This document shows, one piece after another, positions 1,237 through 18,236 of a stretch of DNA of 18,236 nucleotides. This DNA is from a virus (taxonomy: Duplodnaviria; Heunggongvirae; Uroviricota; Caudoviricetes): positions 1-18,236 of IMG/VR virus record IMGVR_UViG_2695420732_000030; one strand, written 5' to 3'. A program made the position numbers and the translations under genes. A model generated the notes under the pieces. It was not told the DNA's origin, ran no database searches, and was given only the letters and a program-made list of their open reading frames with translations. Every line of letters starts with the position of its first letter. Within the stretch, counting starts at the first letter, position 1.

Positions 1237-1237
1237 A

Positions 1238-1928: not shown

Positions 1929-1984
1929 AATTTTTCTCATAAAAAATATTTCAAGTTGGCGGTGCATTACACCGCCAGGCTGAA

Positions 1985-5459: not shown

Positions 5460-5527
5460 TGTTTTTTAACCTCAACTCAGATTAAAATTATTGCGAGTGA
5501 TGAATAAATGTCCCGGGTTCTTGACTC

Positions 5528-5555
5528 AGGCCTGCGCTGAGTGCAGGCCTTTTTC
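5528..5555 (+). terminator. GC-rich hairpin with a T-run only on the plus strand, lying between racC and recE.
   Basis: AGGCCTGC (5528-5535), a 7-nt loop, GCAGGCCT (5543-5550), then TTTTT. On the minus (coding) strand the tail is GAGTCAAG. Confidence 0.45.
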
Positions 5556-5559
5556 CCAT

Positions 5560-5835
5560 TCAGATTTCGCCTTTTTGTTCCATCTCAATCAGAGTTGCCA
5601 TAATCCTGTCTTTTTTCTCTGCTGGAATATTCTTTATGATGTGCACCATGCACATTTTTTTTACACCTTCGTGAAGTGTTTTAACGTTGCCTGATGGACC
5701 GTCGATATCAACCACGGTGAATGGGGTTTCTTTATTTTCTGTTTTAATCACGTAGCCAATGAGTTTTCCTTCCAGGATAACTTCGTGAACAACGTCATCA
5801 GTAGTAACAACAGTGGCTTCATAACTGGTAATCAT
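5560..5835 (-). CDS. racC: RacC-like protein, 91 aa.
   Basis: The start at MITSYEATVVTTDD has AAGGAGAAAAAC upstream on the minus strand. The sequence resembles K-12 RacC. Confidence 0.85.
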   Translation of the reverse strand: MITSYEATVVTTDDVVHEVILEGKLIGYVIKTENKETPFTVVDIDGPSGNVKTLHEGVKKMCMVHIIKNIPAEKKDRIMATLIEMEQKGEI

Positions 5836-5909
5836 GTTTTTCTCCTTAATTAAGGTTGAGCGAATCCCTGCCATTGCTGGCATAAATTCAGTTTCGGATA
5901 GTCAGTTAA

Positions 5910-6080
5910 TTAAAGTTCGTGTGCCATCTGGTCTTTTTCGGCACAGATTTCACTACAATATTTTTTCATTTCCGTCGTTGGTATAACTCCACGCATGAAA
6001 TGAAGTGGTCTTGTAATGATTTTGCTTTCTTCAATTTCTTTATTGCAAAGGTGATAAGCACATTTTATTTTCTTAGTCAT
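5910..6080 (-). CDS. ydaE: YdaE-like small zinc-binding protein, 56 aa. It is not in the supplied ORF track because it is under 60 aa.
   Basis: I translated it by hand as [56 protein letters not shown]. The start ATG shares 1 nt with the kilR stop (TAATG). Confidence 0.8.
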   Translation of the reverse strand: MTKKIKCAYHLCNKEIEESKIITRPLHFMRGVIPTTEMKKYCSEICAEKDQMAHEL

Positions 6081-6301
6081 TACCATGACTCCGCCTTTAC
6101 AGGTAAACCATCACGACCGAGGAAGACTCTAATCATGCAGTCAGAAATGCATGTTTTTGTAGTCAGGCTACGAATATAAAGTTTTCGCTTTTTAATATTG
6201 TTTGCCGAGGCGATATATGTCCGACCTTCATGAAGAACATAATCGCCAGGAGTCACACACTGACGTGGTATTTCATCAGTTCCGAAGTGATGAGCAATCA
6301 T
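6080..6301 (-). CDS. kilR: KilR (FtsZ-inhibiting Kil protein of Rac-type prophages), 73 aa.
   Basis: [46 protein letters not shown]... matches KilR. SD GGAGA lies 7 nt upstream of the ATG at 6301. Confidence 0.9.
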
Positions 6302-6362
6302 AATTATCTCCATTTTTACAAATGAATTTTGTCGATGCGGTGCCTGGTGCCTCCAGGTGACG

Positions 6363-6392
6363 TTAACCAGTTAACAATTAACGCCGGATAAT
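6363..6392 (+). promoter_or_regulatory. Candidate sigma70 promoter reading rightward, away from kilR.
   Basis: TTAACC (6363-6368), an 18-nt spacer, then GATAAT (6387-6392). It is embedded in a GTTAAC-CA-GTTAAC-AATTAAC repeat. Confidence 0.35.
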
Positions 6393-6463
6393 CCACCCAT
6401 AACACTGATGCTTTTAACTGTGCCGCGTGCGCTTAGCCGCATTCACCGCATCACAAAATTCAC

Positions 6464-6512
6464 TTTAAAAAGGCGGACATCAGTCGAACTTCAAGAAAAA
6501 ACTGATGCCGCC
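6464..6512 (-). terminator. Possible minus-strand intrinsic terminator, in a tL-like position upstream of kilR.
   Basis: On the minus strand the sequence is GGCGG-CATCAG, an 18-nt loop, CTGATG-T-CCGCC, then TTTTTAAAG. The large loop weakens the call. Confidence 0.4.
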
Positions 6513-6643
6513 AAGACTACACACAGCAGTGTTGTTAGTCACAACCGGAGGCGCACTCCCACCATTTAAATTTAACAGACAAGACCGACTCTTTATGGAT
6601 ATCGGAAATGCGCCTTCGTGTTGTGCCCGGTTTTATTTCACCA

Positions 6644-6668
6644 CCTCCGGGCTTCGGTGGTTTTCGTT
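6644..6668 (+). terminator. Plus-strand intrinsic terminator.
   Basis: CCTCCG (6644-6649), loop GGCTT, CGGTGG (6655-6660), then TTTTCGTTATT. An alternative pairing is CCCGG 6626-6630 with CCGGG 6647-6651. Confidence 0.55.
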
Positions 6669-6691
6669 ATTCCCCAACAGCGAAAATTAGG

Positions 6692-7042
6692 TTAATCTGA
6701 ATATCCCCCAACAGATGGAAGGATTTTTCTATGCTCGAAAATCAGACCTTGAAGGTTGCCTGCCCTGATTGCGGCAGTGAGATGCTCAAGCGGCCCGATG
6801 ATTTTGACTTTGACACTAATTTCGTTGGCGTTAGTTGTGCCGAATGTGGTCGAGAAATCACTAAGGACGATGTTATTAAGCAAGGAAAAAATGTAGTTCA
6901 GAAACAAGTCAATGACATGCTCCGGAACACCCTCAAAGGCAGCGGGTGGAAGTTTAAATAACCCATGTATCGCACTAAAGTGTTCCGTTACTTCTGTAGC
7001 GTCTATGGTAAGTTTGATAGGCGCTATTTTCACTCCCGTCAT
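6692..7042 (-). CDS. Alternative 116-aa ORF antisense to the zinc-ribbon ORF. It is either a shadow ORF or a genuine overlapping gene.
   Basis: SD GAGGTG lies 6 nt upstream of its ATG, about 70 nt downstream of a near-consensus promoter. However, it sits in the classic -1 shadow frame of the plus ORF and has no recognisable motifs. Confidence 0.3.
   Translation of the reverse strand: MTGVKIAPIKLTIDATEVTEHFSAIHGLFKLPPAAFEGVPEHVIDLFLNYIFSLLNNIVLSDFSTTFGTTNANEISVKVKIIGPLEHLTAAIRAGNLQGLIFEHRKILPSVGGYSD
6731..6961 (+). CDS. Small zinc-ribbon protein of unknown function, 76 aa.
   Basis: SD GGAAGGA lies 8 nt upstream. Two knuckles, CPDCG (res 11-15) and CAECG (res 36-40), are 21 residues apart. 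Of its codons, 70% start with a purine. The C-terminus is charged. Confidence 0.6.
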   Translation: MLENQTLKVACPDCGSEMLKRPDDFDFDTNFVGVSCAECGREITKDDVIKQGKNVVQKQVNDMLRNTLKGSGWKFK

Positions 7043-7118
7043 ACATCACCTCAAATCTTTTCCCTTAACGCCGGGTGGCGGAACTAAAACCTACAGCGCC
7101 GTGCTGTTCTCGATAGAA

Positions 7119-7147
7119 ATATTAGTGACACGTATATTTTAAGTCAA
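7119..7147 (-). promoter_or_regulatory. Near-consensus sigma70 promoter reading leftward. It is the candidate pL for the kilR-recET-xis-int operon.
   Basis: On the minus strand: TTGACT (7147-7142), a 17-nt spacer, TAATAT (7124-7119). An A/T-rich UP-like tract lies upstream at 7148-7170. Confidence 0.6.
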
Positions 7148-7243
7148 CAGCAAGGCGTATTATATTTTTGATTTTGTAACTATGTAAATGTTTTTCAAGG
7201 GAAAAATATTAGTTATACAGCTGATTTGCAGAAGTTATGGCAC

Positions 7244-7276
7244 AAAAAAAACCGACTAAGACGTCGGTTTTTTTTT
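7244..7276. terminator. Bidirectional intrinsic terminator, ending the repressor gene on the minus strand.
   Basis: A8 (7244-7251), CCGAC (7252-7256), a 6-nt loop, GTCGG (7263-7267), then T9 (7268-7276). Confidence 0.85.
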
Positions 7277-7302
7277 GTTGTGGGTGGGGTAGTGAGCGGT
7301 GG

Positions 7303-7764
7303 CTACTGGTTACGTTTCTTTAGTGCCAGCATGTTCTCGAAGGCTTCCTCGTAGAGCTTGTTTAGTCCACGTAGCTGGTTAAGGAGTTTGGCTTTTTCTG
7401 ACGCAGGTAGAATCTCGAAGAGGTTAAGTAACTCTGCCTGTTCTTCATTGACCAGCCTCCATCCTTTGCCTGAAAAGCTATCATCATAAGTATCTGATGA
7501 TCTTACATAATTCATTAAGTCTTTAAGGTCTTCTCGAATGTCCTCTGGTTTTACCTTTAACAGAGCCGCAAATTTTAGCGCAGCGTCGGTATTTACCGGT
7601 ATCTTGCCGTTCAGATACTGGCTAACGGTGCCTTGAGATTCGAATCCCAACAACTCAGCCGCCAACTCTTGAGTCAGCTTCAGCTCTTTTTTTCTTGCAT
7701 TCCATGCGGCTTTTAAATTCTTGCTCGCTTCTGGAGTTGCAATCACTTCGCGTGTTTTTTTCAT
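7303..7764 (-). CDS. Prophage repressor, HTH XRE-family, in the RacR/CI position, 153 aa. It has no S24 peptidase domain.
   Basis: The HTH is LTQELAAELLGFESQGTVSQYLNG. The gene is divergent from the cro-like gene across a 107-bp AT-rich control region. No SD precedes the ATG. Confidence 0.85.
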   Translation of the reverse strand: MKKTREVIATPEASKNLKAAWNARKKELKLTQELAAELLGFESQGTVSQYLNGKIPVNTDAALKFAALLKVKPEDIREDLKDLMNYVRSSDTYDDSFSGKGWRLVNEEQAELLNLFEILPASEKAKLLNQLRGLNKLYEEAFENMLALKKRNQ

Positions 7765-7812
7765 ACATAGAGTTTATTTGTTTTACCAATATTATCAAAG
7801 ATAGTCTGACTA

Positions 7813-7841
7813 TTGATCTTTAAAATTAGTAGGGCTAATAT
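7813..7841 (+). promoter_or_regulatory. Candidate pR for the ydaS-like/ydaT-like/replication operon.
   Basis: TTGATC (7813-7818), a 17-nt spacer, TAATAT (7836-7841). The palindrome ATAGTC-T-GACTAT lies at 7801-7813. Confidence 0.55.
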
Positions 7842-7871
7842 TTGCTCGAGGCATAACGTAGAAGGTTGGCT

Positions 7872-8147
7872 ATGAACTTAAGAGACTATTTAAAAGAGAA
7901 ACATATCACCCAGCTACAGTTTGGGAAGCTAACGGGTTTATCTCAGGTGCATGTAAGTCGAGTGCTGGGGGGCTATGAAAGATTCAGCCCTGAAAAAGCA
8001 TTACGTGTTGCTGAAGTAACGAATTTCGAGGTTACACCTCATGAACTCCGGCCTGATATCTACCCGAATCCAACCGACGGTTTACCTGTTGGATGTAAGG
8101 CTAACACACAAAATACACAGGAGTTGATTCATGAAAATCAGGCATGA
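7872..8147 (+). CDS. ydaS: YdaS-like HTH protein (Cro analogue), 91 aa.
   Basis: ATG at 7872 has GAAGG 6 nt upstream; the track's TTG start at 7866 is less likely. The HTH is ITQLQFGKLTGLSQVHVSRVLGG. The ELRPDI motif is shared with K-12 YdaS. Confidence 0.85.
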   Translation: MNLRDYLKEKHITQLQFGKLTGLSQVHVSRVLGGYERFSPEKALRVAEVTNFEVTPHELRPDIYPNPTDGLPVGCKANTQNTQELIHENQA

Positions 8148-8553
8148 GCACATCGAATCGGTGCTGTTAGCCCTGGCAGCTGAAAAAGGGCAGGCATGGG
8201 TAGCCAGTGCAATTACTGAAGAATATCTGCGCCAGGGAGGCGGCGAATTGCCCCTGGTACCAGGCAAGGACTGGAATAATCAGCAGAACATCTATCACCG
8301 TTGGTTAAAAGGTGAAACGAAAGCGCAAAGGGAAAAAATTCAGAAACTGATCCCTGCGGTTCTGGCAATTCTTCCGCGCGAGCTGCGTCACCGACTCTGC
8401 ATCTTCGATACCCTGGAACGCCGTGCATTACTGGCGGCGCAGGAAGCGTTGAGTACGGCAATTGATGCGCATGATGATGCAGTCCAGGCCGTTTACCGGA
8501 AAGCACATTTCAGCGGTGGTGGGTCGCCCGGCGATTCTGTCGTAGTGCATTGA
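8131..8553 (+). CDS. ydaT: YdaT-like protein (CII functional analogue, formerly called a toxin), 140 aa.
   Basis: MKIRHEHIESVLLALAAEKGQAWVASAITEEYLRQGGGELPLVPGKDWN... is near-identical to my recollection of K-12 YdaT. It overlaps the ydaS-like gene by 17 nt. Confidence 0.9.
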   Translation: MKIRHEHIESVLLALAAEKGQAWVASAITEEYLRQGGGELPLVPGKDWNNQQNIYHRWLKGETKAQREKIQKLIPAVLAILPRELRHRLCIFDTLERRALLAAQEALSTAIDAHDDAVQAVYRKAHFSGGGSPGDSVVVH

Positions 8554-8597
8554 TTGAAATTAATCGTGCCGGATTGTTTTGTTCGGTATCAGTTAAA

Positions 8598-9039
8598 TGT
8601 AACGCTGCGAGCGTTACAAGGTGAAAACAAATGGCTTCAAACTGGATAAAGCTCGAGGTTATTACGCCGGATAAGCCGGAAATATTCAGGCTTGCTGAGA
8701 TTCTGAATATTGATCCAGATGCCGCATTAGGGAAGGTTATTCGCTTCTGGGCATGGGCGGATCAACAAATGATAGACGGTAATGCAGATTGTAACGCTCG
8801 CGGCGTTACAAAAAGTGCAATAGATCGCATCACTTTTATGGCTGGTTTTGCTGATGCGTTAATTCAGGTTGGATGGCTGGTCGAAAATGACGGTGGGCTT
8901 TCTCTACCTAACTTTGAACGTCATAACGGGAAAAGCTCTAAAAAACGGGCGGTTACAAACGAGCGAGTTACAAAAATACGCGAACTGAAACGAAAAGGTA
9001 ACGCTGGCAGCGTTACACAAACGGATCAAAAAGCGTTAC
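8598..9039. repeat. Putative origin iterons: repeated GCGTTACA / TGTAACGC palindromes.
   Basis: TGTAACGC-N5-GCGTTACA occurs at 8598-8618 and 8790-8810, both perfect. GTAACGC-N5-GCGTTAC occurs at 8998-9016. Direct GTTACAAA half-sites occur at 8952-8959 and 8967-8974. GCGTTAC occurs at 9033-9039. Confidence 0.6.
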
Positions 9040-9425
9040 CAGAGGAAGAGGAAGAGGAAGAGGAAGATATAAATACTGATCTCCCCCTAAATCCCCCTCG
9101 CCAAAAACGAGCGTCTAAAAAATTCGAGCCGGAGGCTATCGAGCTACCTGACTGGTTGCCGGAAACACTCTGGCATGAGTGGGTTCAGTTCAGGCAGGCA
9201 TTGCGAAAACCGATTCGAACGGAGCAGGGCGCTAACGGGGCGATACGGGAACTGGAAAAATTCCGTCAGCAGGGTTTTACACCTGAGCAGGTGATTCGAC
9301 ACAGCATCGCCAATGAATACCAGGGCTTGTTCGTACCGAAAGGTGTTCGGCATGAGACGTTGCTCCGACAGGTTAACACCGTCTCGTTGCCGGACAGTGC
9401 GATCCCGCCAGGCTTCAGGGGGTAA
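8631..9425 (+). CDS. Replication initiator (lambda O-like / YdaU-position protein), 264 aa.
   Basis: It lies immediately upstream of the DnaC-like loader. It contains internal iterons and a poly-Glu linker. SD AAGGTGA is present. Confidence 0.75.
   Translation: MASNWIKLEVITPDKPEIFRLAEILNIDPDAALGKVIRFWAWADQQMIDGNADCNARGVTKSAIDRITFMAGFADALIQVGWLVENDGGLSLPNFERHNGKSSKKRAVTNERVTKIRELKRKGNAGSVTQTDQKALPEEEEEEEEDINTDLPLNPPRQKRASKKFEPEAIELPDWLPETLWHEWVQFRQALRKPIRTEQGANGAIRELEKFRQQGFTPEQVIRHSIANEYQGLFVPKGVRHETLLRQVNTVSLPDSAIPPGFRG
9043..9066 (+). repeat. Tandem hexanucleotide repeat (AGGAAG)x4 encoding the EEEEEEEE linker.
   Basis: Read directly from the sequence. An AT-rich ATATAAATACTGATC follows. 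Confidence 0.9.
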
Positions 9426-9431
9426 CAGACC

Positions 9432-10172
9432 ATGAAAAATATTGCGACAGGCGGCGTTCTGGAGCGTATCCGCAGACTGACCCCACCACATGTAACCGCC
9501 CCATTCAGAACGGTTGCGGAGTGGCGTGAGTGGCAACTTACTGAAGGCCAGAAACGTTGCGAGGAGATCAACCGTCTGAATCGTCAGTTGCGGGTGGAAA
9601 AAATTCTGAATCGCTCTGGCATCCAGCCGTTGCACCGTAAATGCTCGTTTGCGAATTACCAGGTGCAGAACGACGGCCAGCGATACGCGTTAAGCCAGGC
9701 GAAATCCATCGCCGATGAACTGATGACCGGGTATACAAATTTTGCGTTCAGCGGAAAACCTGGTACCGGGAAGAATCACTTAGCGGCAGCTATCGGGAAT
9801 CGCCTGTTGAAAGACGGTCAGACAGTGATTGTGGTTACCGTGGCTGATGTTATGAGCGCCCTGCACGCCAGCTATGACGACGGGCAGTCAGGCGAAAAAT
9901 TTTTGCGTGAACTGTGCGAAGTGGACCTCCTGGTTCTTGACGAAATTGGCATCCAGCGTGAGACGAAAAACGAGCAGGTGGTACTGCACCAGATTGTTGA
10001 CCGCCGGACGGCATCACTGCGCAGTGTCGGGATGCTGACAAACCTGAATCATGCCGCAATGAGCACGCTTCTTGGTGAGAGGATTATGGACCGGATGACC
10101 ATGAACGGTGGTCGTTGGGTGAATTTTAACTGGGAGAGCTGGCGGTCAAACGTTGGACGTCAGGGTATGTGA
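9432..10172 (+). CDS. DnaC-like helicase loader, an IstB-like AAA+ ATPase (YdaV / lambda P position), 246 aa.
   Basis: Walker A is GKPGTGKNHLAAAIG and Walker B is LLVLDEIG. It lies downstream of the initiator gene. Confidence 0.9.
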   Translation: MKNIATGGVLERIRRLTPPHVTAPFRTVAEWREWQLTEGQKRCEEINRLNRQLRVEKILNRSGIQPLHRKCSFANYQVQNDGQRYALSQAKSIADELMTGYTNFAFSGKPGTGKNHLAAAIGNRLLKDGQTVIVVTVADVMSALHASYDDGQSGEKFLRELCEVDLLVLDEIGIQRETKNEQVVLHQIVDRRTASLRSVGMLTNLNHAAMSTLLGERIMDRMTMNGGRWVNFNWESWRSNVGRQGM

Positions 10173-10197
10173 GAATTTTTAACGAGGTGAATTTTCG

Positions 10198-10968
10198 ATG
10201 GAAACCGTATTACATGCACTGAAAGCGATGGGAAAAGCCAATTCTGTTGAACTGGCGGCACGAATTGATATCAGCCGTGAAGAAGTTATCAACGAACTGT
10301 GGGAGCTCAAAAAAAATGGCGTTGTTGATAAAACGGGTCACACCTGGTTTCTGGCTGTCGAAGGTGAATCCCGGGTAACCGAAGAGCGGCCAGTAAAATC
10401 TGAAACACAGGATATGCTGACCGAAGAGGTCGCTCCAAAAGTTAGCGCTAACATGATGATTGAGTTTATCGCTCAGGAGGGGGCTAAAACCTGTGAAGAA
10501 ATAGCGGGTAAGTTCGGTGTCAGTACTCGCAAGGTTGCTTCCACGCTGGCGGTGGTAACCGCAACGGGGCGGCTGGCACGCGTTAATCAGAACGGTAGAT
10601 TTCGTTACTGCATGCCGGGCGATAATTTACCAGCAGAGCCGAAAGCCGCGCTGGTAACGGAAAGTGATGGTAAGGCCTTTCCTCAGCCAGCAGGTGCTGC
10701 GTTACCAGTCCGGGAAGCCGCAACACAGGAAGAAATTAAAACAGAAACTGTGGCGGACATTGTGCAGCCGTTGCCATCGTTTACCGAAACGCAAGCAGAT
10801 GAGCTGATTTTTCCGTCCCTTCGCAGGGCAAACCTGGCGCTGCGCAGGGCGAAAAGTGATGTTCAGAAGTGGGAGCGAGTCTGCGCCGCGCTGCGGGAGC
10901 TGAACAAGCACCGGGATATTGTTCGGCAGATTGTCGATTCATCCGGTCGTATTGTGTCGGAAAAGTGA
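10198..10968 (+). CDS. Hypothetical protein with two wHTH-like segments, 256 aa. It is DUF1627-like, from memory.
   Basis: SD GAGGTGA is present. The wHTH-like segments are SVELAARIDISREEVINELWELKKNG and CEEIAGKFGVSTRKVASTLAV. Confidence 0.7.
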   Translation: METVLHALKAMGKANSVELAARIDISREEVINELWELKKNGVVDKTGHTWFLAVEGESRVTEERPVKSETQDMLTEEVAPKVSANMMIEFIAQEGAKTCEEIAGKFGVSTRKVASTLAVVTATGRLARVNQNGRFRYCMPGDNLPAEPKAALVTESDGKAFPQPAGAALPVREAATQEEIKTETVADIVQPLPSFTETQADELIFPSLRRANLALRRAKSDVQKWERVCAALRELNKHRDIVRQIVDSSGRIVSEK

Positions 10969-10983
10969 TTGCCGGAGGCGCTT

Positions 10984-11376
10984 ATGGCAAAAGTATTTAC
11001 ACCAGAAGAGCGGGAAGAAGTGAGGGCGCGCATTGTGGAATTCGTGCGCCTGAGCGGACGAGAAACTTTTCGACAACTGGCAGATAAAACGGGTGTCAGT
11101 AAGACCGCTATTCGTCGTTTATCTGGTGCGCTTGCGGCCAGTGGTGATGTCTGGCTCTCTGGTTGCGGGGTATTTCTATCAGAGCAGGCGTATCGCGTAT
11201 GGCGTAAGACACCGGAGAAGGCTGCTGACCCGACACTGATTCGAAAGTTACCTGACGGAGAAATACGTCGTTACAACAGACGGCAGAACATAATTTGTCG
11301 TGAGTGCCGCCAGAGCGAAGTTATGCAGCGTGTGCTGGCGTTCTATCGGGGTAATTTTCAGGAGGTGATGGAGTGA
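10984..11376 (+). CDS. Hypothetical wHTH-like protein, 130 aa.
   Basis: ATG at 10984 has GGAGG 5 nt upstream, which is preferred over the track's TTG at 10969. It contains FRQLADKTGVSKTAIRRLSGAL. Confidence 0.65.
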   Translation: MAKVFTPEEREEVRARIVEFVRLSGRETFRQLADKTGVSKTAIRRLSGALAASGDVWLSGCGVFLSEQAYRVWRKTPEKAADPTLIRKLPDGEIRRYNRRQNIICRECRQSEVMQRVLAFYRGNFQEVME

Positions 11377-11669
11377 GGGTGAGGGTTTATATCGCCGGTC
11401 CGATGACCGGGTATAAAAATTTCAACCGTGAGGCGTTCCACAAGGCGGAAGAGGAACTGAAACGGGAAGGGCATACAGTCTTAAACCCGGCAGTACTTCC
11501 GGACGGGCTGACACAGCCGCACTACATGGATATTTGCATGGCAATGATTCGTTGCGTGGATGCGATTTACATGCTGAATGGCTGGCAGCGGTCAGCGGGC
11601 GCTAAGGCAGAGCTGGCACTGGCGGAGAAACTGGGACATACGGTGATTTATCAGGAGGTGGCTCAATGA
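11373..11669 (+). CDS. DUF4406-like protein (nucleoside 2-deoxyribosyltransferase-like fold), 98 aa.
   Basis: The GTG start lies 7 nt after GGAGG and overlaps the upstream stop. VYIAGPMTG...NFNREAF is typical of the family. Confidence 0.75.
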   Translation: MRVRVYIAGPMTGYKNFNREAFHKAEEELKREGHTVLNPAVLPDGLTQPHYMDICMAMIRCVDAIYMLNGWQRSAGAKAELALAEKLGHTVIYQEVAQ

Positions 11670-12385
11670 GAGAGGTTAACTATGAGGCGCTTCGTGAAGC
11701 AGCAGAGAAAGCAACTAAAGGATGCTACATCGTAGGGCATACATCGGGCAATCAGCATGGGAATATAACAGGAGTTTTTGTTTGTCAAAAATGGAAAGGA
11801 GAACCCGGTGGCGTAATTGCAGAATGTCATGTTAACTGCCTGGTTGAAACAGATGCTCAGGCTTACGCAAACGCTGAATTTATTGCTGCCTTTAATCCAA
11901 ATGTTGCGCTGGCACTACTGGATGAACGGGAAAGAAACCAGCAATACATCAAATCACGCGACCAGGAGAACGAGGAGATTGCGCTTACGGAAGGGAAGCT
12001 GCTAATCGAAAACGGCCGGCTTGTTGCCGATACGCTACGCCACTTAGCTGATAACGAAATCGACTCTGATTATTTTGCTATCACCTCAACGAATGAGAAC
12101 GGTACTGAAATTGATCATGAGATGGCTATTACCGATTACGCACTGCAAGCTGCCGGAACTGTAGACGAATTGGTTGCGGCGTTGGAATCCGCAGAGAAGC
12201 GCATTGCAGAACTGGAAGCACGGGAAATATCGCTCCCAGAACGTAGCAGCATGCTTCATCGAACAGATTTTCACGATGATTACCAAACGGTAATGGCATA
12301 CAAAGTTTCTGAAGTCATCGCTGCAATCCGCGCCGCTGGCATTCGCATCAAAGGAGAGGAGCATGGAAATAAAACCAGAAGATGA
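11666..12385 (+). CDS. Ead/Ea22-like family protein, 239 aa.
   Basis: An ATGA overlap joins it to the upstream gene. It contains EALREAAEKAT, FIAAFNPNVALALLDE and a C-terminal coiled-coil ESAEKRIAELEA. Confidence 0.8.
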   Translation: MREVNYEALREAAEKATKGCYIVGHTSGNQHGNITGVFVCQKWKGEPGGVIAECHVNCLVETDAQAYANAEFIAAFNPNVALALLDERERNQQYIKSRDQENEEIALTEGKLLIENGRLVADTLRHLADNEIDSDYFAITSTNENGTEIDHEMAITDYALQAAGTVDELVAALESAEKRIAELEAREISLPERSSMLHRTDFHDDYQTVMAYKVSEVIAAIRAAGIRIKGEEHGNKTRR

Positions 12386-12719
12386 GTTAAGCAATATCGT
12401 TTTATTTCCGGTAAAAGAGGATGACCCACGTAATCAGGTTAATTTTCTCTATGAGCCATCGGAAAGACCATATTGCCATCACGCCTCTGTCCGGGTTGAC
12501 GAAAAAGAGCGTCAGGTCCGCTGTAAAATCTGCGGTGCAGTTGTGGAGCCATTTGACTGGATGCTCTCTGTGGCGAAAAGAGAAACCAGACTGGCAGATG
12601 ATGTAAGGATCTTGCGCCAGGAGGAACGGGAAAGGCGGAGAAATATAGAAAAGCTAATTCAGATTGAGCGTAACGTGAAAGCGCGGATACGCAGGGTGAC
12701 AAAATCCAGAACTGAATAA
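12363..12719 (+). CDS. Hypothetical protein, 118 aa, with a possible C-H-H...CxxC metal site and a basic coiled-coil tail.
   Basis: SD GGAGAGGAG is present. It overlaps the upstream gene by 23 nt. It contains CHH...CKIC. Confidence 0.65.
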   Translation: MEIKPEDELSNIVLFPVKEDDPRNQVNFLYEPSERPYCHHASVRVDEKERQVRCKICGAVVEPFDWMLSVAKRETRLADDVRILRQEERERRRNIEKLIQIERNVKARIRRVTKSRTE

Positions 12720-12767
12720 TTAAATTTAGCTCTGTTAAAAATTTAATCCTTAACCGGAGGTATATCA

Positions 12768-12980
12768 ATGTCAAACGCACAGAAAGTTATTAACGCTGAA
12801 AAATATAACGAGTGGGTGAAAAAGTTCTCAGAGCAGATTTTTAAAATTACTGGCGACGAGAATGCGGCAAAAAATGAATTAGAGCCGTGGACACCTGAAG
12901 GTGTCGACCCAAATTATTGCTGGTGGGATGTTGATCCAGTTGATGCTGCAAATGAAGCTATGAGTTATCACAACGATTAA
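12768..12980 (+). CDS. Hypothetical acidic protein, 70 aa.
   Basis: SD GGAGG lies 8 nt upstream of the ATG. Confidence 0.6.
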   Translation: MSNAQKVINAEKYNEWVKKFSEQIFKITGDENAAKNELEPWTPEGVDPNYCWWDVDPVDAANEAMSYHND

Positions 12981-13015
12981 TGTCAGGAGGCCGCCCGAAA
13001 GGGCGGTAATGAAAA

Positions 13016-13894
13016 GTGACTGAATTAACCAAAGAGAAATTAATCGAAGAAGCCAAATTAAAAATAGCGATTGCGAAATGCTACCCCAATTCAGGGATGG
13101 CACGGGTATAGGGCGAGTTATTCAAAATTGCACTGGCATAGCTGGAAGCAGATCCAGTTAAACGAGTTAACTCAGATCAGATGCACCGAGTCTGCTTAGA
13201 AGCTAATCGCTATTTAGATAAATATGACGCGATGGCGAAAGAGGTAAATAAGTTGCTTGGACGCATCGCCCCGCCAGCGCCAGTATTTAACGGCGAATAC
13301 GGTGACGCATATCAGGGCGCTCGTGAAGACCTGTCCATCTGGAAACGGCGAGCGCTTGAAGCTGATGAGCACGTTCGGCGACTGGAGCAAATCAATGACC
13401 ACATGGTGAAAGAGGCGCAGGGAGAATCACGCATGGGCGAGCCTGTAATACGTGAGCCAGCACCGGTAGTGCCTGAAGAAGCAACTCCGGAAAACGTAGA
13501 AATGCTCTCTGGCTATGTTTCAACGTACAAATTAACCGATAGCGAGCGCGATATTGCTGCCGAAATATGGAACGCCTGCCGCGCCGCCATGCTTCAGGCT
13601 GGAAACTTTCGGGAAAATAAGGGTTCGTCAACCAATAATTTTCGGGAAATCTCGGAAACGTCAACCAACTATCCGGTAACTCCGGATGGTTGGATAAGCT
13701 GTAGTGAGCGAATGCCGGATGATGGTCAGCACGTAATTATTTTATGTGATGGCGCATTCGTTCTTTATGCGCAATATCGAGACGGTGAGTTTTTTGATGT
13801 AGTCCGTAATGGTGATGAATTTTTCGAAACACAGAGCCGCAATGTAACCGACTGGATGCCGCTACCAGAACCGCCGCAGGAGGTGCGCCAATGA
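13016..13894 (+). pseudogene. Ea22-like N-terminus fused to a DUF551 C-terminus. The frame is interrupted by two in-frame TAG codons. The longest intact piece is 13181-13894 (237 aa).
   Basis: One frame is open from 13016 to 13894 except for TAG at 13109-13111 and 13139-13141. The C-terminus WISCSERMPDDGQHVII...WMPLPEPP is a classic DUF551. There is no SD before ATG 13181. Confidence 0.5.
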
Positions 13895-13974
13895 TCTGGC
13901 CTGAAGCCTTTGCAATTACAGGCGTTGCTATAGCTATTGATTTTTTAGTATATGTTATTTGTCGGTGGGGGTAA
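13891..13974 (+). CDS. Tiny hydrophobic peptide, 27 aa (MIWPEAFAITGVAIAIDFLVYVICRWG).
   Basis: An ATGA overlap joins it to the upstream stop. It has a single predicted TM helix. I translated it by hand; it is below the track cutoff. Confidence 0.4.
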   Translation: MIWPEAFAITGVAIAIDFLVYVICRWG

Positions 13975-14009
13975 AAACGTTCGCCGGGATTCACACCAAA
14001 GGAGGGAAT

Positions 14010-14114
14010 ATGTCGGATGATATTTCACTGGCAATGGAAGGTGCGCTGGCTGTTATTGCTGTTGTGGGCGTTTACTGCCTGGTTGTGTTTTTGATGGATC
14101 GACTAGGGAACTGA
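14010..14114 (+). CDS. Tiny membrane peptide, 34 aa (MSDDISLAMEGALAVIAVVGVYCLVVFLMDRLGN).
   Basis: A strong SD, AAGGAGGG, lies 4 nt upstream. It has a single TM helix. I translated it by hand. Confidence 0.55.
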   Translation: MSDDISLAMEGALAVIAVVGVYCLVVFLMDRLGN

Positions 14115-14122
14115 ATTCATTA

Positions 14123-14144
14123 CGATATGGGAATTCCCATATCG
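14123..14144. repeat. Perfect 22-bp palindrome CGATATGGGAATTCCCATATCG.
   Basis: Read directly from the sequence. It lies between the small peptide gene and the hok promoter. No T-run is present on either side. Confidence 0.9.
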
Positions 14145-14156
14145 GGTAAAAACGGT

Positions 14157-14184
14157 TTGCGGTAAAGCGAGAGTTAAGTAGAAT
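14157..14184 (+). promoter_or_regulatory. Candidate hok mRNA promoter.
   Basis: TTGCGG (14157-14162), a 16-nt spacer, TAGAAT (14179-14184). The predicted 5' end near 14191, GGGTGCTTGAGGC, resembles the hok mRNA 5' end of plasmid R1. Confidence 0.5.
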
Positions 14185-14244
14185 TGCTGCGGGTGCTTGA
14201 GGCTATCTGTCTCGGGCATGAACACCAACGGCAGATAGAGAAAA

Positions 14245-14311
14245 GCCCCAGTTAACATTACGCGTCCGGCAAGACGCTTAACATTAATCTGAGGCCATAT
14301 CTATGCTCTAC
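14245..14311 (-). ncRNA. sok: Sok-like antisense RNA. The ends are approximate.
   Basis: The minus strand carries GTAAGAGGCTAACCT (-10 TAACCT, 14323-14318), homologous to my recollection of the R1 sok promoter GTAAGAGGCTATCCT. The RNA is antisense to the mok start. A hairpin GCGTC/GACGC lies at 14262-14277. Confidence 0.5.
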
Positions 14312-14515
14312 ATACGTAGGTTAGCCTCTTACGTGCCGAAAGGCAAGGAGAAGCAGGCTATGAAGCAGCAAAAGGCGATGCTAATCGCCCTGATCGTCAT
14401 CTGTTTAACCGTCATTGTGACGGCACTGGTAACGAGGAAAGACCTCTGCGAGGTACGAATCCGAACCGGCCAGACGGAGGTCACTGTCTTCACAGCTTAC
14501 GAACCTGAGGAGTAA
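14303..14515 (+). CDS. mok: Mok-like in-frame upstream extension of hok, 70 codons.
   Basis: The ORF begins 19 codons upstream of the hok ATG in the same frame. This matches chromosomal mok/hok loci as I recall them. Confidence 0.6.
   Translation: MLYIRRLASYVPKGKEKQAMKQQKAMLIALIVICLTVIVTALVTRKDLCEVRIRTGQTEVTVFTAYEPEE
14360..14515 (+). CDS. hok: Hok/Gef family type I toxin, 51 aa.
   Basis: MKQQKAMLIALIVICLTVIVTALVTRKDLCEVRIRTGQTEVTVFTAYEPEE is a canonical Hok/Gef sequence. SD AAGGAGAAG is present. Confidence 0.92.
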   Translation: MKQQKAMLIALIVICLTVIVTALVTRKDLCEVRIRTGQTEVTVFTAYEPEE

Positions 14516-14584
14516 GAGACCAGGCGAGGGAGAAATCCCTCGCCACCTCTCATGTGTCAGGCATCTTCAACGCACCCGCACTTA

Positions 14585-14612
14585 ACCCGCTTCGGCGGGT
14601 TTTTGTTTTTAT
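14585..14612 (+). terminator. Intrinsic terminator of the hok mRNA.
   Basis: ACCCGC-TTCG-GCGGGT followed by TTTTGTTTTTATTTT. Confidence 0.85.
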
Positions 14613-14735
14613 TTTCAATACGTTTGAAGTTATGGACGATGCCGGAATAGAATCAAAAATACTTAAGTAGCGCGCAGGGAGAAGAGGGATGGACCCCGAA
14701 CAGGGGGGTGCTATTTATCTGGAAGGATTCTGTTG

Positions 14736-14909
14736 ATGAAAATTGAAGAATTACGTGAAATTTTTAGTGAAAATGGCCTCTTTGCTGTGCGCGTTGAGAA
14801 TGGGGAAGTTATCTACGCAACGTTAATCCCTGATAATCATGTAATTTTATCTATCGAGGCATTCATTGAATATCTTGAAAGGCTCGGTTTCAAGGTGATT
14901 CGGGAATGA
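14736..14909 (+). CDS. Hypothetical protein, 57 aa (MKIEELREIFSENGLFAVRVENGEVIYATLIPDNHVILSIEAFIEYLERLGFKVIRE).
   Basis: I translated it by hand; it is below the track cutoff. GGAAGGA lies 8 nt upstream. The start overlaps the stop of a 15-codon uORF (TGATG). Confidence 0.5.
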   Translation: MKIEELREIFSENGLFAVRVENGEVIYATLIPDNHVILSIEAFIEYLERLGFKVIRE

Positions 14910-14968
14910 GTTATAATTCGTAAGCCAGCCTGAACAACTGGCAACCTACAGCGCCATTGGAGACAGCA

Positions 14969-15568
14969 ATGGCGCATATACAACTGGTCAAACAAACCTC
15001 TTCCGGATTACTTCTCCCGGCGACGCCGGAGAGTTGCGATTTTTTGCATCAAATCAAAATAGGTGAGTGGATACACGCGGACTTTAAGCGAGTGCGTAAC
15101 TACGCGTTCCACAAGCGTTTTTTCAAACTCCTGCAACTGGGATTCGATTACTGGACTCCGAACGGTGGGGCGATCACGCCTCGCGAACGAGAACTGGTGT
15201 CCGGTTTCGTTGATTTCCTGTGCGAATCAGTAGGTCGGGAACATACGCCAGCCCTGAGTGATGCCGCAGAGCAATACCTTAACACCGTTACGACTTGCAG
15301 AACCCGGGATACGGCCTTACTCAAGTCCTTTGACGCTTTTCGCGAATGGGTAACCATTCAGGCCGGATTTTACACCGAACATTTTTATCCGGACGGTAGT
15401 CGTGGGCGCAGGGCAAAATCTATCGCATTTGCGAACATGGACGAAACCGAGTTTCAGCAGGTTTATAAATCTGTACTGAATGTGCTGTGGAACTGGATCC
15501 TGTTCCGTAAATTTTCCTCTCCGGAGGAAGTCGAAAATGTGGCCGCGCAGTTACTGGAGTTTGCGTAA
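14969..15568 (+). CDS. DUF1367-like phage protein, 199 aa.
   Basis: ATG at 14969 has GGAG 6 nt upstream, which is preferred over the track's TTG at 14957. The MAHIQLVKQTSSGLLLPATPES N-terminus and its position before the DUF1364 gene and Q are typical. Confidence 0.8.
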   Translation: MAHIQLVKQTSSGLLLPATPESCDFLHQIKIGEWIHADFKRVRNYAFHKRFFKLLQLGFDYWTPNGGAITPRERELVSGFVDFLCESVGREHTPALSDAAEQYLNTVTTCRTRDTALLKSFDAFREWVTIQAGFYTEHFYPDGSRGRRAKSIAFANMDETEFQQVYKSVLNVLWNWILFRKFSSPEEVENVAAQLLEFA

Positions 15569-15858
15569 TGGTGGATTTACGTAAAGCGGCGCGGGGGCAG
15601 ATGTGCACAGTCAGAATTCCTGGCTACTGCAATCACAATCCCGAAACTTCTGTGCTGGCGCATTACAGGCTGGCGGGGACGTGCGGAACAGCGACAAAAC
15701 CACACGATATGCAGGCGGCGATTGCCTGTAACTCATGCCACGATTTAATCGACGGGAGAGTAAAAACCAGCGATTACACCAAAGAAGAATTGCGCCTGAT
15801 GCATGCAGAAGGTGTTTTTCGCACACAAGAGATCTGGAGAAAGGACGGTTATTTATGA
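15568..15858 (+). CDS. DUF1364 / YbcO-like protein (putative nuclease with a Cys/His metal site), 96 aa.
   Basis: DLRKAARGQMCTVRIPGYCNHNPETSVLAHYR...ACNSCHDLIDGR resembles DLP12 YbcO. A TAATG overlap joins it to the upstream gene. Confidence 0.85.
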   Translation: MVDLRKAARGQMCTVRIPGYCNHNPETSVLAHYRLAGTCGTATKPHDMQAAIACNSCHDLIDGRVKTSDYTKEELRLMHAEGVFRTQEIWRKDGYL

Positions 15859-16409
15859 TTTACCCAACGAACACAGGAAAAAGCGGAGAGCACCTTCGTC
15901 TCACCACGCTGGAAAGTGTCTGGATTCAGGGGAAACTACGTATGTGGGGGCGCTGGTCGTATATTGGCGGCGGTAAGACGGGAAATATGTTCAACCAGTT
16001 GCTGACCTCTAAAAAGCTGACAAAAACGGCAATTAACGAGGCGCTCCGGAGGATGAAAAAAGCAGGTCTGGACAAACCTAAACTTGAGGCTTTTTTGCGG
16101 GATATGATCAACGGCAAGCAAAAAAGCTGGCTGGTGCATTGTACCGATTCAGAGGCGTTAATAATCGACAGGGTTATTGGTGAAGTACTGGCAGGTTATC
16201 CCGGGCTGCTCAATGTTCTGAGTCAGCGTTATGTGGGGCGGGGGATGACTAAGCGCAAAATGGCTGAACTGCTGAATGATGCACATCCGGAATGGAGTTT
16301 AAGAACCTGTGAAAGACGCATTGAGCATTGGCTAAAGGTGGCAGAATTTATTTTGTACAAACCAATGGTTATGGCTTTTGGTATAGAGAAAAAAGTTATT
16401 GCTTTTTGA
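15855..16409 (+). CDS. Q: Late-gene antiterminator of the Q family, 184 aa.
   Basis: The start at MIYPTNTG overlaps the upstream stop (ATGA). It is the last gene before a terminated short leader, the tRNAs and the late region. The track's 15735 start lies inside the upstream gene. Confidence 0.8.
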   Translation: MIYPTNTGKSGEHLRLTTLESVWIQGKLRMWGRWSYIGGGKTGNMFNQLLTSKKLTKTAINEALRRMKKAGLDKPKLEAFLRDMINGKQKSWLVHCTDSEALIIDRVIGEVLAGYPGLLNVLSQRYVGRGMTKRKMAELLNDAHPEWSLRTCERRIEHWLKVAEFILYKPMVMAFGIEKKVIAF

Positions 16410-16485
16410 CGTAAAAACTGCTTCAATTCCGGTAAGCTTCGCAAAGCTGTATCGCGAGGCGAACCAAACGCATGAACTTTACCAG
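16406..16485 (+). promoter_or_regulatory. Expected pR'/qut region. Only the -35 element is confidently seen.
   Basis: TTGACG at 16406-16411 overlaps the Q stop codon. No good -10 lies at 17-nt spacing (CCGGTA). A hairpin AGCTT-CGCA-AAGCT lies at 16435-16448. Confidence 0.4.
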
Positions 16486-16511
16486 AACCCGCCATTGAGC
16501 GGGTTTTTTAT
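16486..16511 (+). terminator. tR'-like intrinsic terminator.
   Basis: AACCCGC-CATTGA-GCGGGTT followed by TTTTTATT. Confidence 0.8.
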
Positions 16512-16548
16512 TGCGGAATTAATTACGGACCGTTATTATTCTGCTCCC

Positions 16549-16624
16549 GGCCCTTTAGCTCAGTGGTGAGAGCGAGCGACTCATAATCGCCAGGTCGCTG
16601 GTTCAAATCCAGCAAGGGCCACCA
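16549..16624 (+). tRNA. ileZ: tRNA with anticodon CAU, ileX/ileZ-like (tRNA-Ile2 after lysidine modification; formally Met by anticodon).
   Basis: I folded the cloverleaf by hand. The acceptor is GGCCCTT/AAGGGCC. The D arm is GCTC/GAGC. The anticodon loop is CTCATAA. The T arm is GCTGG-TTCAAAT-CCAGC. ACCA is encoded. It closely resembles E. coli ileX. Confidence 0.9.
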
Positions 16625-16633
16625 TATCACATA

Positions 16634-16710
16634 CCGCCATTAGCTCATCGGGACAGAGCGCCAGCCTTCGAAGCTGGCTGTGCGGGGTTCAAGTCCCCGA
16701 TGGCAGTCCA
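16634..16710 (+). tRNA. argN: tRNA-Arg (anticodon UCG).
   Basis: The acceptor is CCGCCAT/ATGGCAG, with a C2-A71 mismatch. The anticodon arm is CCAGC-CTTCGAA-GCTGG. The T arm is CGGGG-TTCAAGT-CCCCG. TCCA is encoded. Confidence 0.8.
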
Positions 16711-16723
16711 TTATCAGCATCAT

Positions 16724-16800
16724 GCGTTGTTAGCTCAGCCGGACAGAGCAATTGCCTTCTAAGCAATCGGTCACTGGTTCGAATCCAGTACAACGCGCCA
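16724..16800 (+). tRNA. argO: tRNA-Arg (anticodon UCU, reads AGA/AGG).
   Basis: The acceptor is GCGTTGT/ACAACGC. The anticodon arm is ATTGC-CTTCTAA-GCAAT. The T arm is ACTGG-TTCGAAT-CCAGT. GCCA is encoded. Confidence 0.9.
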
Positions 16801-17086
16801 CACCACACTTATCTGCCCTGACTCTCTTTTGCGGGCTTTTTATTACAGGAAAGACACCGGACAGTGAAATGTTAAATGCCTCACAATTCAGGTAGTTGAC
16901 TGTTGCCTGACATGCTGAGCGTTTGTTAAAAAAATCCTGCATGATGAATCCCCCTGGGCGGCGGGGCATAATGACAGATGTTTGGTTGCGTATTGTATAG
17001 GCAAGTTGCGGATTCTGTCTGGTCATTGCAGAATTCACCGGGAGGCACCCGGCATCATGCTGTATACAGAGATTAGGCATATATCC

Positions 17087-17112
17087 AGGCTCCTCATCGC
17101 AGGAGCCTTTTT
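17087..17112 (+). terminator. Plus-strand intrinsic terminator.
   Basis: AGGCTCCT-CATCGC-AGGAGCCT followed by TTTT. Confidence 0.75.
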
Positions 17113-17118
17113 ACATGC

Positions 17119-17143
17119 AAAAAAAGCCCGAGTAGGTTCGGGC
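17119..17143 (-). terminator. Minus-strand intrinsic terminator, back-to-back with the previous one.
   Basis: On the minus strand: GCCCGA-ACCTAC-TCGGGC followed by TTTTTTT. Confidence 0.65.
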
Positions 17144-17203
17144 AACAGCATGAGATACTTGCATTGTCATTTTTATCGTGTGGATTTTAACCAGGGTTTA
17201 TAA

Positions 17204-17228
17204 GGCTGCGCAACTGCGCGGCCTTTTT
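17204..17228 (+). terminator. Plus-strand intrinsic terminator.
   Basis: GGCTGCGC-AACT-GCGCGGCC, with one G-U pair, followed by TTTTT. Confidence 0.7.
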
Positions 17229-17330
17229 CGTATTGCGGGCTGTAGTCTTCCTTCTGTCATTGTCCTGTAACTTCCGGACTTCAGCCCGCCCCTTATCTGA
17301 CTCACAACATTATCCCGGCCGGGAGGATTC

Positions 17331-18236
17331 ATGGCATTTAAACACTACGATGTGGTCAGGGCGGTGTCGCCGTCAGACCTTGCTGATGCACTTGCTCAAA
17401 AAATTCGTGAAGGATGGCAACCATACGGCGGGCCGTTTTCTTCGTATACGGATGATGGCGCAGCACTTATTCAGGCGATTGTCGCAGAAGGTGATGTGAG
17501 CACACCTGTTGTGGTGAAGCCGTCGGATGGAGAAGGCACAGTAATCAGCGCCACCAGAGACCCGGAGTATTACTTTGTTGTGGTTCTGGCGGGGCAGTCA
17601 AACAGCATGGCATATGGTGAAGGCCTTCCGCTGCCGGAGACATATGACCGTCCGGACCTGCGCATTAAGCAGCTGGCGCGTCGCAGTACGGTGACACCGG
17701 GCGGTGTCGCCTGTAAATATAACGACATCATTCCGGCGGACCATTGTCTGCATGATGTGCAGGACATGAGCCGCCTTAACCATCCGAAAGCGGACCTGTC
17801 AAAGGGGCAGTACGGAACCGTGGGGCAGGGGCTGCATATCGCCAAAAAACTGCTGCCGTTTATACCGGCGAATGCGGGCATTCTGCTGGTTCCGTGCTGT
17901 CGTGGTGGTTCAGCGTTCACCACCGGAGCTGATGGCACATACAGTGACGCGAGTGGTGCCTCGGAGAATTCAACCCGCTGGGGTGTGGACAAGCCGCTGT
18001 ATAAGGACCTTATCGGTCGAACAAAAGCAGCACTGAAGAAGAACCCGAAAAATGTGCTGTTTGCCGTGGTGTGGATGCAGGGGGAATTTGATTTTGGCGG
18101 TACGCCGGCAAATCACGCAGCACAGTTTGGTGCGCTGGTTGATAAATTCCGTGCAGACCTGGCGGATATGGCAGGTCAGTGCGTCGGTGGCTCTGCTGGC
18201 GGTGTTCCCTGGATATGTGGAGATACGACGTATTTC
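17331..18236 (+). CDS. nanS-p: NanS-p-type sialate O-acetylesterase (DUF1737 N-terminal domain plus a SASA/SGNH-like esterase domain). This is a 5' partial of 302 codons that runs off the window.
   Basis: It is not in the supplied ORF track. ATG at 17331 has GGGAGG 5 nt upstream. I translated it by hand and found no stop through 18236: MAFKHYDVVRAVSPSDLADALAQKIREGWQPYGGPF...VVVLAGQSNSMAYGEG...WMQGEFD. The GQSN motif is typical of SASA esterases. Confidence 0.9.
   Translation, partial: MAFKHYDVVRAVSPSDLADALAQKIREGWQPYGGPFSSYTDDGAALIQAIVAEGDVSTPVVVKPSDGEGTVISATRDPEYYFVVVLAGQSNSMAYGEGLPLPETYDRPDLRIKQLARRSTVTPGGVACKYNDIIPADHCLHDVQDMSRLNHPKADLSKGQYGTVGQGLHIAKKLLPFIPANAGILLVPCCRGGSAFTTGADGTYSDASGASENSTRWGVDKPLYKDLIGRTKAALKKNPKNVLFAVVWMQGEFDFGGTPANHAAQFGALVDKFRADLADMAGQCVGGSAGGVPWICGDTTYF

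Follow-up and report, generated by a model that had tools for sequence, protein, structure and literature searches.

What does a lambdoid prophage carry between its late promoter and its sialate esterase gene when the Shiga toxin (Stx) genes known from this place are missing? The question is raised by a stretch of caudoviral DNA of 18,236 nucleotides (IMG/VR record IMGVR_UViG_2695420732_000030, positions 1 to 18,236; this whole stretch is called the window). Its interval 16801-17330 is flanked on the left by a Q-like gene, a tR'-like terminator and three tRNA genes and on the right by nanS-p. An original prediction made from the letters alone had taken these 530 bp for the empty place where Stx phages carry stxAB. 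Our analysis makes it very probable that the interval is a non-coding regulatory module of the lambdoid prophages of pathogenic Escherichia coli, which follows the late promoter/tRNA block, precedes nanS-p and encodes two convergent and independently terminated small RNAs (sRNAs) of the Hfq type, and that here it sits in a Rac-site (ttcA) prophage without stx. This reading is built on sequence identity to experimentally verified RNAs, on synteny, on mapped breakpoints and on conserved structures. The features as such are already known, since the pair of EcOnc28/STnc100 and EcOnc03 in an stx-free prophage was described by Tree et al. 2014 (PMC4104026). For this window the main value of the analysis is a correct label for an interval that is left blank in public annotation: in matching E. 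coli genomes the RefSeq annotation of 16801-17330 is empty.

Two convergent small RNAs

The plus strand of the interval contains an RNA of the STnc100 family at 16910-17118. The match to the Rfam model RF02076 scores 175.6 bits (cut-off 47), extends over model positions 1-206 of 206 and is not truncated. A published EcOnc28 read obtained by cross-linking, ligation and sequencing of hybrids (CLASH) equals window 16977-17038, and we therefore identify the RNA as the same allele as EcOnc28 of the Sakai prophage Sp9. Further relatives are EcOnc27/sRNA103 and, by structure, PasD. The window copy lies directly upstream of a sialate esterase gene, as reported for PasD, and follows the tRNA genes, whereas EcOnc27/sRNA103 in the Stx2 phage follows stxB. 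Its intrinsic terminator at 17087-17113 (-13.5 kcal/mol, z -4.1; all z-scores compare fold energies with those of shuffled sequences) matches the terminal helix of the Rfam model. The CCGGG/CCCGG hairpin at 17040-17053, which had been listed in the original prediction, is present and turned out to be the most conserved motif of the family, its 20-mer TCACCGGGAGGCACCCGGCA being found in more than 120 viral contigs, but it is weak by itself (z -0.6). A possible extended -10 element, TGTTAAAAA, is seen at about 16925-16933. For the strain EDL933 all 11 STnc100 copies listed have RNA-seq reads, and for the Sp5 homologue EcOnc27/sRNA103 lengths of 235/247 nt and a rise of fimZ and espA upon overexpression have been published. 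STnc100-like units, each of which combines the CACCGGGAGGCACCCGG hairpin with a terminator GGCUGC...GCGGCC, also occur in metagenomic viral contigs as tandem arrays with a period of about 254 bp (L059 4436-4994; L015, L026).

On the minus strand we find a 60-nt RNA of the AgvB/AsxR family of anti-sRNAs at 17178-17119, which is of the EcOnc03 type and consists of a variable 5' region (CGAUAAAAAUGACAAUGCAA), the core GUAUCUCAUGC and a terminator at 17143-17126 followed by a U-run. Folded as a whole, including the terminator, this RNA has a z-score of -2.4. Compared with the 51-nt EcOnc03 sequence given in Fig. S4 of Tree et al. 2014 it has one deviating base, in the terminator loop (CCU versus CCC), and its U-tail is one base shorter than in the genomic Sp9 allele, which has one T more. 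The two sRNAs are convergent and their 3' ends abut at 17118/17119. The back-to-back terminators had been taken to imply one short rightward and one short leftward RNA, and matches to Rfam models of the STnc100 and the AgvB type bear this out. The hint to AsxR, a reported anti-sRNA, was also a good lead, the leftward RNA being a paralogue of AsxR and AgvB. The interval was thus rightly proposed as a place to look for prophage sRNAs and indeed holds two, but both have been published before (EcOnc28/STnc100 and EcOnc03, PMC4104026).

Tree et al. 2014 (PMC4104026) described convergent pairs of Hfq-bound sRNAs at the moron site downstream of pR' in the Sakai prophages Sp3, 4, 5, 9, 10, 11, 15 and 17, and a review (PMC7873438) likewise describes convergent sRNA dyads at this site; taken together the two sources cover at least eight Sakai prophages. 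The anti-sRNAs among them form a class of 51-60 nt in which about 42 nt on the 3' side are conserved while the 5' end varies (PMC4104026). The window RNA has the conserved 3' region of about 42 nt with its terminator and a variable 5' region of the 14-18 nt type, and it belongs to a convergent pair at the moron site upstream of nanS-p. In Sakai, EcOnc03 gave northern bands of 56, 54 and 51 nt and was destabilised in an hfq mutant (Tree et al. 2014, PMC4104026, Fig. S4 and Table S2), and it is among the most abundant Hfq-bound RNAs there. A short transcript that is bound by Hfq and depends on it has accordingly been reported for the near-identical Sakai allele.

Among the closest relatives of the interval is the corresponding part of Sakai Sp9, which is about 99% identical from 16801 to about 17250, including EcOnc28, and which likewise has no stx. 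EcOnc03 of Sp9 shares with the window RNA the variable 5' region, the convergent partner and the place between the tRNAs and nanS-p in an stx-negative prophage. The prophages themselves differ: the window represents a prophage at the Rac site (ttcA) with three tRNAs and a Q of the DUF1133 type, whereas in Sp9 there are two tRNAs and a DNA methylase gene. The published Sakai coordinates (PMC4104026, PMC5286369) are 137 bp lower than those of NC_002695.2. Because these papers use an older, shifted genome version, mapping by coordinates misplaces EcOnc03 and EcOnc28, and we mapped both by sequence.

With Rfam the minus-strand RNA reaches 56.2 bits for AgvB (cut-off 56) and 44 bits for AsxR (cut-off 63). 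AgvB (EcOnc01; RF02702, anti-GcvB) has the same conserved 3' part of core and terminator, the same -10, the same genomic position and a convergent partner of the STnc100 type. The 5' region, however, reads AAAAAUGACAAUGCA in the window where AgvB has ACAACACAACAAUAUC, the mimic of GcvB targets (CACAACA, the R1 target consensus) is absent, and pairing to GcvB is predicted at -10.9 kcal/mol for the window RNA compared to -19.4 kcal/mol for AgvB. Since the mimic is absent we rejected AgvB proper and conclude that the window RNA is not an AgvB in function. The Rfam label is due to the shared 3' part only, and this naming, obtained at the threshold, is functionally misleading for automated annotation. 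AsxR (EcOnc02; RF02703, anti-FnrS, from the Stx2 phage Sp5) belongs to the same family, has the same position relative to nanS-p and forms the same dyad with an STnc100-type RNA (EcOnc27). It lies downstream of stx2B, though, and its 5' region CGAUUAUUAAAACGA is complementary to the loop of the FnrS terminator. The window RNA has another 5' region and no stx beside it, and with its score below the cut-off AsxR proper was rejected, too.

A survey of the family anchored on the hairpin at 17202-17225 (the third hairpin, see below) yielded 66 loci on viral contigs with an anti-sRNA of the AgvB/AsxR/EcOnc03 family. Their 5' regions fall into four classes. The class of the window, EcOnc03, is represented by 21 loci, the AgvB type by 20 and the AsxR type by nine; the remaining 16 loci have a fourth 5' region, CGAUUAUAAAAAUGUAUAUCUC (CGAUUAUAAAAAUGUAUAUCUCAUGC), which matches none of the three 5' regions printed in Tree et al. 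2014 (examples are L029 3262-3321 and L120, L135, L136, L139, L152 and L155). As promoter of EcOnc03 we propose the minus-strand elements at 17184-17213, that is a -10 hexamer TAAAAT (plus-strand 17184-17189), an 18-nt spacer and a -35 hexamer TTGCGC (plus-strand 17208-17213). The putative -35 falls within the 17202-17225 hairpin, namely in its 5' arm and loop. TAAAAT is present in all four 5'-region classes of the 66 loci and in 12 of 12 loci found by the core, and its position suits the start of the Rfam model at 17178. In the Stx1 prophage Sp15 of Sakai a different leftward sRNA-like unit separates the STnc100 copy from nanS-p (L230 about 3230-3340; the minus strand of this locus corresponds to the late-strand orientation of Sp15). 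The hairpin homologous to window 17202-17225 carries the -35 of this unit, TTGCGC, in its loop, and a good -10, TATTAT, follows.

The toxin junction

The original prediction had recognized the flanks, with the Q-like gene, tR', the three tRNAs and nanS-p, as those of the Shiga-toxin cargo site, and the synteny with an Stx2a phage (LC616040) bears this out. Compared with the Stx moron site of the 933W/Sp5 type, in which Q, tR', ileZ argN argO, stxAB and nanS-p follow each other, both flanks are alike: the left homology to LC616040 spans window 16509-16841 (91.9% identity) and the right homology window 16881-18236 (84.7% identity). Only the flanks match, and neither stxA nor stxB is encountered between the tRNA block and nanS-p; instead of stxAB or a remnant of it the window has a filler of 25 nt at the junction. 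Between the two homology blocks lie 1.34 kb of LC616040 in which stx2A (319 aa) and stx2B (89 aa) are encoded, and this stretch replaces only window 16842-16880. In Sp15 the homology picks up again at window 16867, 40 nt after stx1B. The alignment with Stx1 and Stx2 phages that had been proposed as a check therefore maps the breakpoints to 16841/16881 for stx2AB and to 16867 for Sp15, and from both we conclude that the cargo junction extends from 16842 to about 16866-16880. The claim that the whole 530 bp correspond to the place of stxAB does not hold, as about 450 of them (16881-17330) are also found downstream of stxB in Stx phages. In agreement with the breakpoints, the STnc100 Rfam match begins 75 nt after the stx2 operon in Stx2 phages. 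The sRNA pair is hence part of the late-region backbone and not toxin cargo, the true cargo junction being situated a few dozen bases directly upstream.

The prediction had also named a finding that would speak against it, namely an end-to-end alignment with non-Stx phages unrelated to the stx flanks. Such non-Stx prophages do align (Sp9 with about 99%, 2013C-4974 with 99.4%), but because they share the stx flanks the connection with the toxin site is retained.

The actual slot is the 25-nt filler ACAGGAAAGACACCGGACAGTGA at 16842-16866, at which related phages hold nothing, a TerB/DUF3927 cassette or stx2AB. Judged from these alignments, the toxin insertion point at 16842-16866 is unoccupied. 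That the window holds no toxin gene or remnant, as had been stated, was confirmed: searches of the window with the Stx1 and Stx2 subunits (tblastn) and with both cassettes (sensitive blastn) gave nothing better than E about 0.2, and the filler showed no similarity to the toxin cassettes in blastn. We therefore rejected a toxin remnant, and the scar of cargo loss that had been considered cannot be shown. A resemblance of the filler to the stx2A leader (ATTAC...AAAGGAACACC), noticed by eye, was dismissed as too short to count.

We surveyed the junction in loci that have both flanks by measuring the distance from the argO-like tRNA to the conserved TCACAATTCAG motif. The minimal empty site, in which a terminator with its T-run abuts AAATGT, measures 44-46 bp (19 loci), and the window type with the 25-nt filler 74-79 bp (15 loci). 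Larger junctions comprise one of 103 bp, which looks like a deletion remnant of a 0.8-kb cassette (L010 1391-1493), one of 514 bp with an additional STnc100-like unit, five of about 800 bp with a cassette of TerB (PF05099) and DUF3927, and one of 1.3 kb with stx2AB. This makes the idea of a cargo slot correct, with the difference that the slot is short and confined to the left margin of 16801-17330. The 0.8-kb cassette at the stx2AB junction encodes a 143-aa TerB-domain protein and a 50-aa DUF3927 membrane peptide (L064 1005-1801, L115 11351-12148, L133 1379-2175, L196 9780-10577, L220 3449-4246).

Terminators, leader hairpin and the alternatives

A terminator scan of the region and the list of open reading frames (ORFs) recovered the hairpins, terminators and ORFs of the original prediction at the positions it had given. 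The scan reports terminator-like sites at 17087-17108 and 17202-17225 on the plus strand and at 17143-17126 on the minus strand. As three sites compared to 1.6 +/- 1.4 expected are not significant alone, the evidence is borne by fold energy and conservation. The weak hairpin with T-run at 16815-16841 (plus strand) is found at its site, where it follows the tRNAs and borders the cargo junction on the left, but with -6.0 kcal/mol it is no better than chance (z -0.04). Its homologue in the Stx2a phage is a good terminator (-14.8 kcal/mol), of which the window hairpin is a decayed relative. The third hairpin, AAGGCUGCGCAACUGCGCGGCCUU with a U-run at 17202-17229 (plus strand), has -18.3 kcal/mol and a z-score of -4.35 and is present at 12 of 12 loci that were retrieved with the sRNA core alone. 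In the variant at AgvB loci the stem is kept by G-U pairing that is possible only in the plus-strand RNA. We read this hairpin as a rightward terminator which overlaps the proposed leftward promoter. Matches of it to the Rfam models Leu_leader and SorY were far below the cut-offs (E 0.05-0.95) and were treated as chance.

Further downstream, in the 5' leader of nanS-p, we noticed a long conserved hairpin at 17235-17285 (plus strand; -21.6 kcal/mol, z -4.47), which had not been listed before. Over 21 sequences its helices are 94.0% and 98.1% paired, and the structure as tested, to which the third hairpin also belonged, reaches 96.3%; slid controls pair at 25-49%. Compensatory changes occur at two pairs and, like the G-U pairing in the third hairpin, suit a fold of the plus-strand RNA.

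Taken together these elements suggest how the module could work. In the lysogen, pR' transcription would halt at tR' (about 16484-16512), and both sRNAs would be made from their own promoters, the STnc100-family RNA with roughly 175-235 nt and EcOnc03 with 51-60 nt, would bind Hfq and would regulate host RNAs in trans. If EcOnc03 behaves like its paralogues AgvB and AsxR, it would bind a host RNA through its variable 5' region. The third hairpin, over the putative -35 of EcOnc03, would halt read-through before nanS-p and the lysis genes. Upon induction the Q-modified polymerase would pass all three plus-strand terminators and go on across the EcOnc03 gene in antisense direction.

A different view of the same hairpins is that they are mere transcriptional insulators which back up tR' and keep nanS-p and the lysis genes silent in the lysogen, with the short RNAs as by-products without targets. 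There are indeed three more plus-strand terminator-like hairpins after tR' (16815-16841, which is degenerate, 17087-17113 and 17202-17229), and the last of them is retained even in Sp15, which has no AgvB-type RNA. Insulation leaves unexplained, however, that the minus-strand unit has a conserved -10 and a terminator of its own and that its hypervariable 5' end comes in four separate classes. AgvB and AsxR, moreover, have validated targets and a fitness phenotype, and the high abundance of EcOnc03 among the Hfq-bound RNAs of Sakai does not suit a by-product either; we consider this explanation unlikely. The strong and conserved terminator at 17202-17229 might instead end a further plus-strand RNA of about 85 nt, which the original prediction had started from TTTACA-17-TAGGTT near 17145 and ended at 17228, and which could control EcOnc03 in antisense, since any plus transcript over 17119-17178 is fully complementary to it. 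The proposed -10, though, sits in the terminator loop of EcOnc03 and is not conserved: its critical A is a G in Sp9 and in the Stx2a phage (TGGGTT), which leaves the RNA unsupported. A promoter scan gave no plus-strand promoter there, and in the interval the accessible part of Table S2 of Tree et al. 2014 gives only EcOnc28 and EcOnc03. We regard such an RNA as very unlikely.

Inert leftover DNA, meaning a functionless toxin slot, empty or scarred, in which the hairpins are incidental, would agree with the lack of ORF annotation in RefSeq genomes, with the degenerate left hairpin and with the junction filler. It is hard to reconcile with the conservation of most of the interval downstream of stxB in Stx phages and with the matches to two experimentally detected Hfq-bound RNAs, and no similarity to a cassette supports a scar, so that this view is scarcely tenable. 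Finally, a small protein might be encoded. The region contains just two ORFs, one of 116 aa on the minus strand (16730-17080) and one of 73 aa on the plus strand (16982-17203, TTG start), and some STnc100 copies in EDL933 carry ribosome footprints. In the alignment to the Stx2a phage, however, gaps of 1, 6, 1 and 5 nt fall inside the plus ORF and a gap of 2 nt just upstream of it, inside the minus ORF. Because these gaps break the frames we rejected the coding potential of both ORFs. The minus ORF in addition crosses a tRNA gene and the plus ORF crosses two terminators, and the chance that either encodes a protein seems close to nil.

Several points nevertheless weigh against the view that the interval is a module of two active regulatory sRNAs. 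Expression in this strain, like the promoters, the targets and the logic of lysogeny and lytic growth, is something we infer. The 5' end of the STnc100-family RNA, at about 16884-16941, and its promoter are not fixable from sequence. The proposed -35 of EcOnc03 agrees with the consensus at only three of six positions, and the covariation seen in the leader hairpin comes from about three lineages. No target of EcOnc03 has been validated, and we found no published sRNA partner of it in the literature; a full-text search with its sequence for a later name found no paper. With RNAduplex we compared its 5' region with 12 K-12 sRNAs (McaS, FnrS, MicC, RalA, KilS, GcvB, OmrA, OmrB, RyhB, ArcZ, MicA and MicF), none of which paired above shuffled sequences: the best duplexes, with GcvB (-10.9 kcal/mol) and with the 3' end of ArcZ (-10.3 kcal/mol), are equalled by 77% of the shuffles. 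Of the controls, AgvB-GcvB worked, while the validated pair AsxR-FnrS was also missed, being not above shuffles. In view of this failed control and of the lacking signal over shuffles the duplex screen is uninformative.

The eptB start region and the neighbouring genes

The core of EcOnc03, which is conserved in the anti-sRNA family, offers another lead. GUAUCUCAUGC (window minus strand, 17158 to 17148) is a perfect 11-mer complement of the start region of eptB, UUUGC-AUG-AGA-UAC, with -17.8 kcal/mol; by chance a match of this kind close to any start codon would be expected with a probability of about 0.04. The eptB gene encodes a 3-deoxy-D-manno-octulosonic acid (Kdo) phosphoethanolamine transferase which modifies the lipopolysaccharide (LPS) core. 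The published RNase E-CLASH tables give 7 reads in which EcOnc3 is joined to ompC and 4 in which it is joined to eptB, and at the exact eptB site hybrids with AgvB1, EcOnc3 and AsxR are recorded. In 5292 of 5426 E. coli genomes this site shows a conservation of 99% or more. The source of the RNase E-CLASH data reports an enrichment of 'cation transport' (mntH, fieF, bfr); eptB is absent from its main text, and we found no paper in the literature that links eptB to AgvB, AsxR or EcOnc03. We tentatively suggest that the anti-sRNA family, including EcOnc03 of the window, might be bifunctional, with the variable 5' end binding a host sRNA and the core serving as a shared second seed for the eptB start codon. 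If the idea is true, many unrelated prophages would impose the same change of the envelope and LPS core, and the conserved half of the RNA would gain a function. On the compared locus the eptB start lies at L238 about 1914-1926.

The left flank of the cargo site is formed by three phage tRNA genes on the plus strand (16549-16800), found with ARAGORN and by Rfam tRNA matches, which are ileZ-like (anticodon CAT), argN-like (TCG) and argO-like (TCT). In the genome with 99.4% identity the Prokaryotic Genome Annotation Pipeline labels them tRNA-Ile/Arg/Arg. The Q-like ORF at 15735-16409 matches the Pfam families DUF1133 and Phage_antitermQ (32.8 bits, cut-off 26), and the tR'-like terminator lies downstream of it. 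Within 16408-16512 a pR'-like promoter (TTGACG ... TAAGCT) overlaps the stop codon of Q and is followed by tR'. The transcript between them would have about 65-70 nt and would be a positional analogue of lambda 6S RNA and of StxS, to which its sequence is unrelated. The ORF that forms the right flank (17331-18236, plus strand) starts with ATG at 17331 and continues past the end of the window. It has the domains PF08410 (DUF1737) and PF03629 (SASA, sialate O-acetylesterase) and is therefore the 5' part of nanS-p; E. coli genomes annotate the nanS-p-like ORF as DUF6645/SASA esterase.

The best matching E. coli genomes (99.4%) put the window into a lambdoid prophage at the Rac site (ttcA), which strains such as O55:H7 CB9615 and 2013C-4974 carry, with the gene order zntB-ynaL-dbpA-ttcA | intR xisR ralR recT recE ... 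hokD ... Q-like gene, tRNAs, esterase, holin and lysozyme. Rfam matches at window 1557-1735 and 14191-14365 are those of the ralR antitoxin RNA, RalA (225 bits), and of a sok antitoxin RNA (108 bits) beside hokD, so that one prophage carries two type I toxin-antitoxin RNAs. In K-12 a distance of about 2.8 kb separates the gene of FnrS, the target of the paralogue AsxR, from the site at which the prophage is attached (order zntB-fnrS-ynaL-dbpA-ttcA | intR; L232 9130-9251, L231 1-3600), and the window prophage occupies the attachment site near which K-12 fnrS sits.

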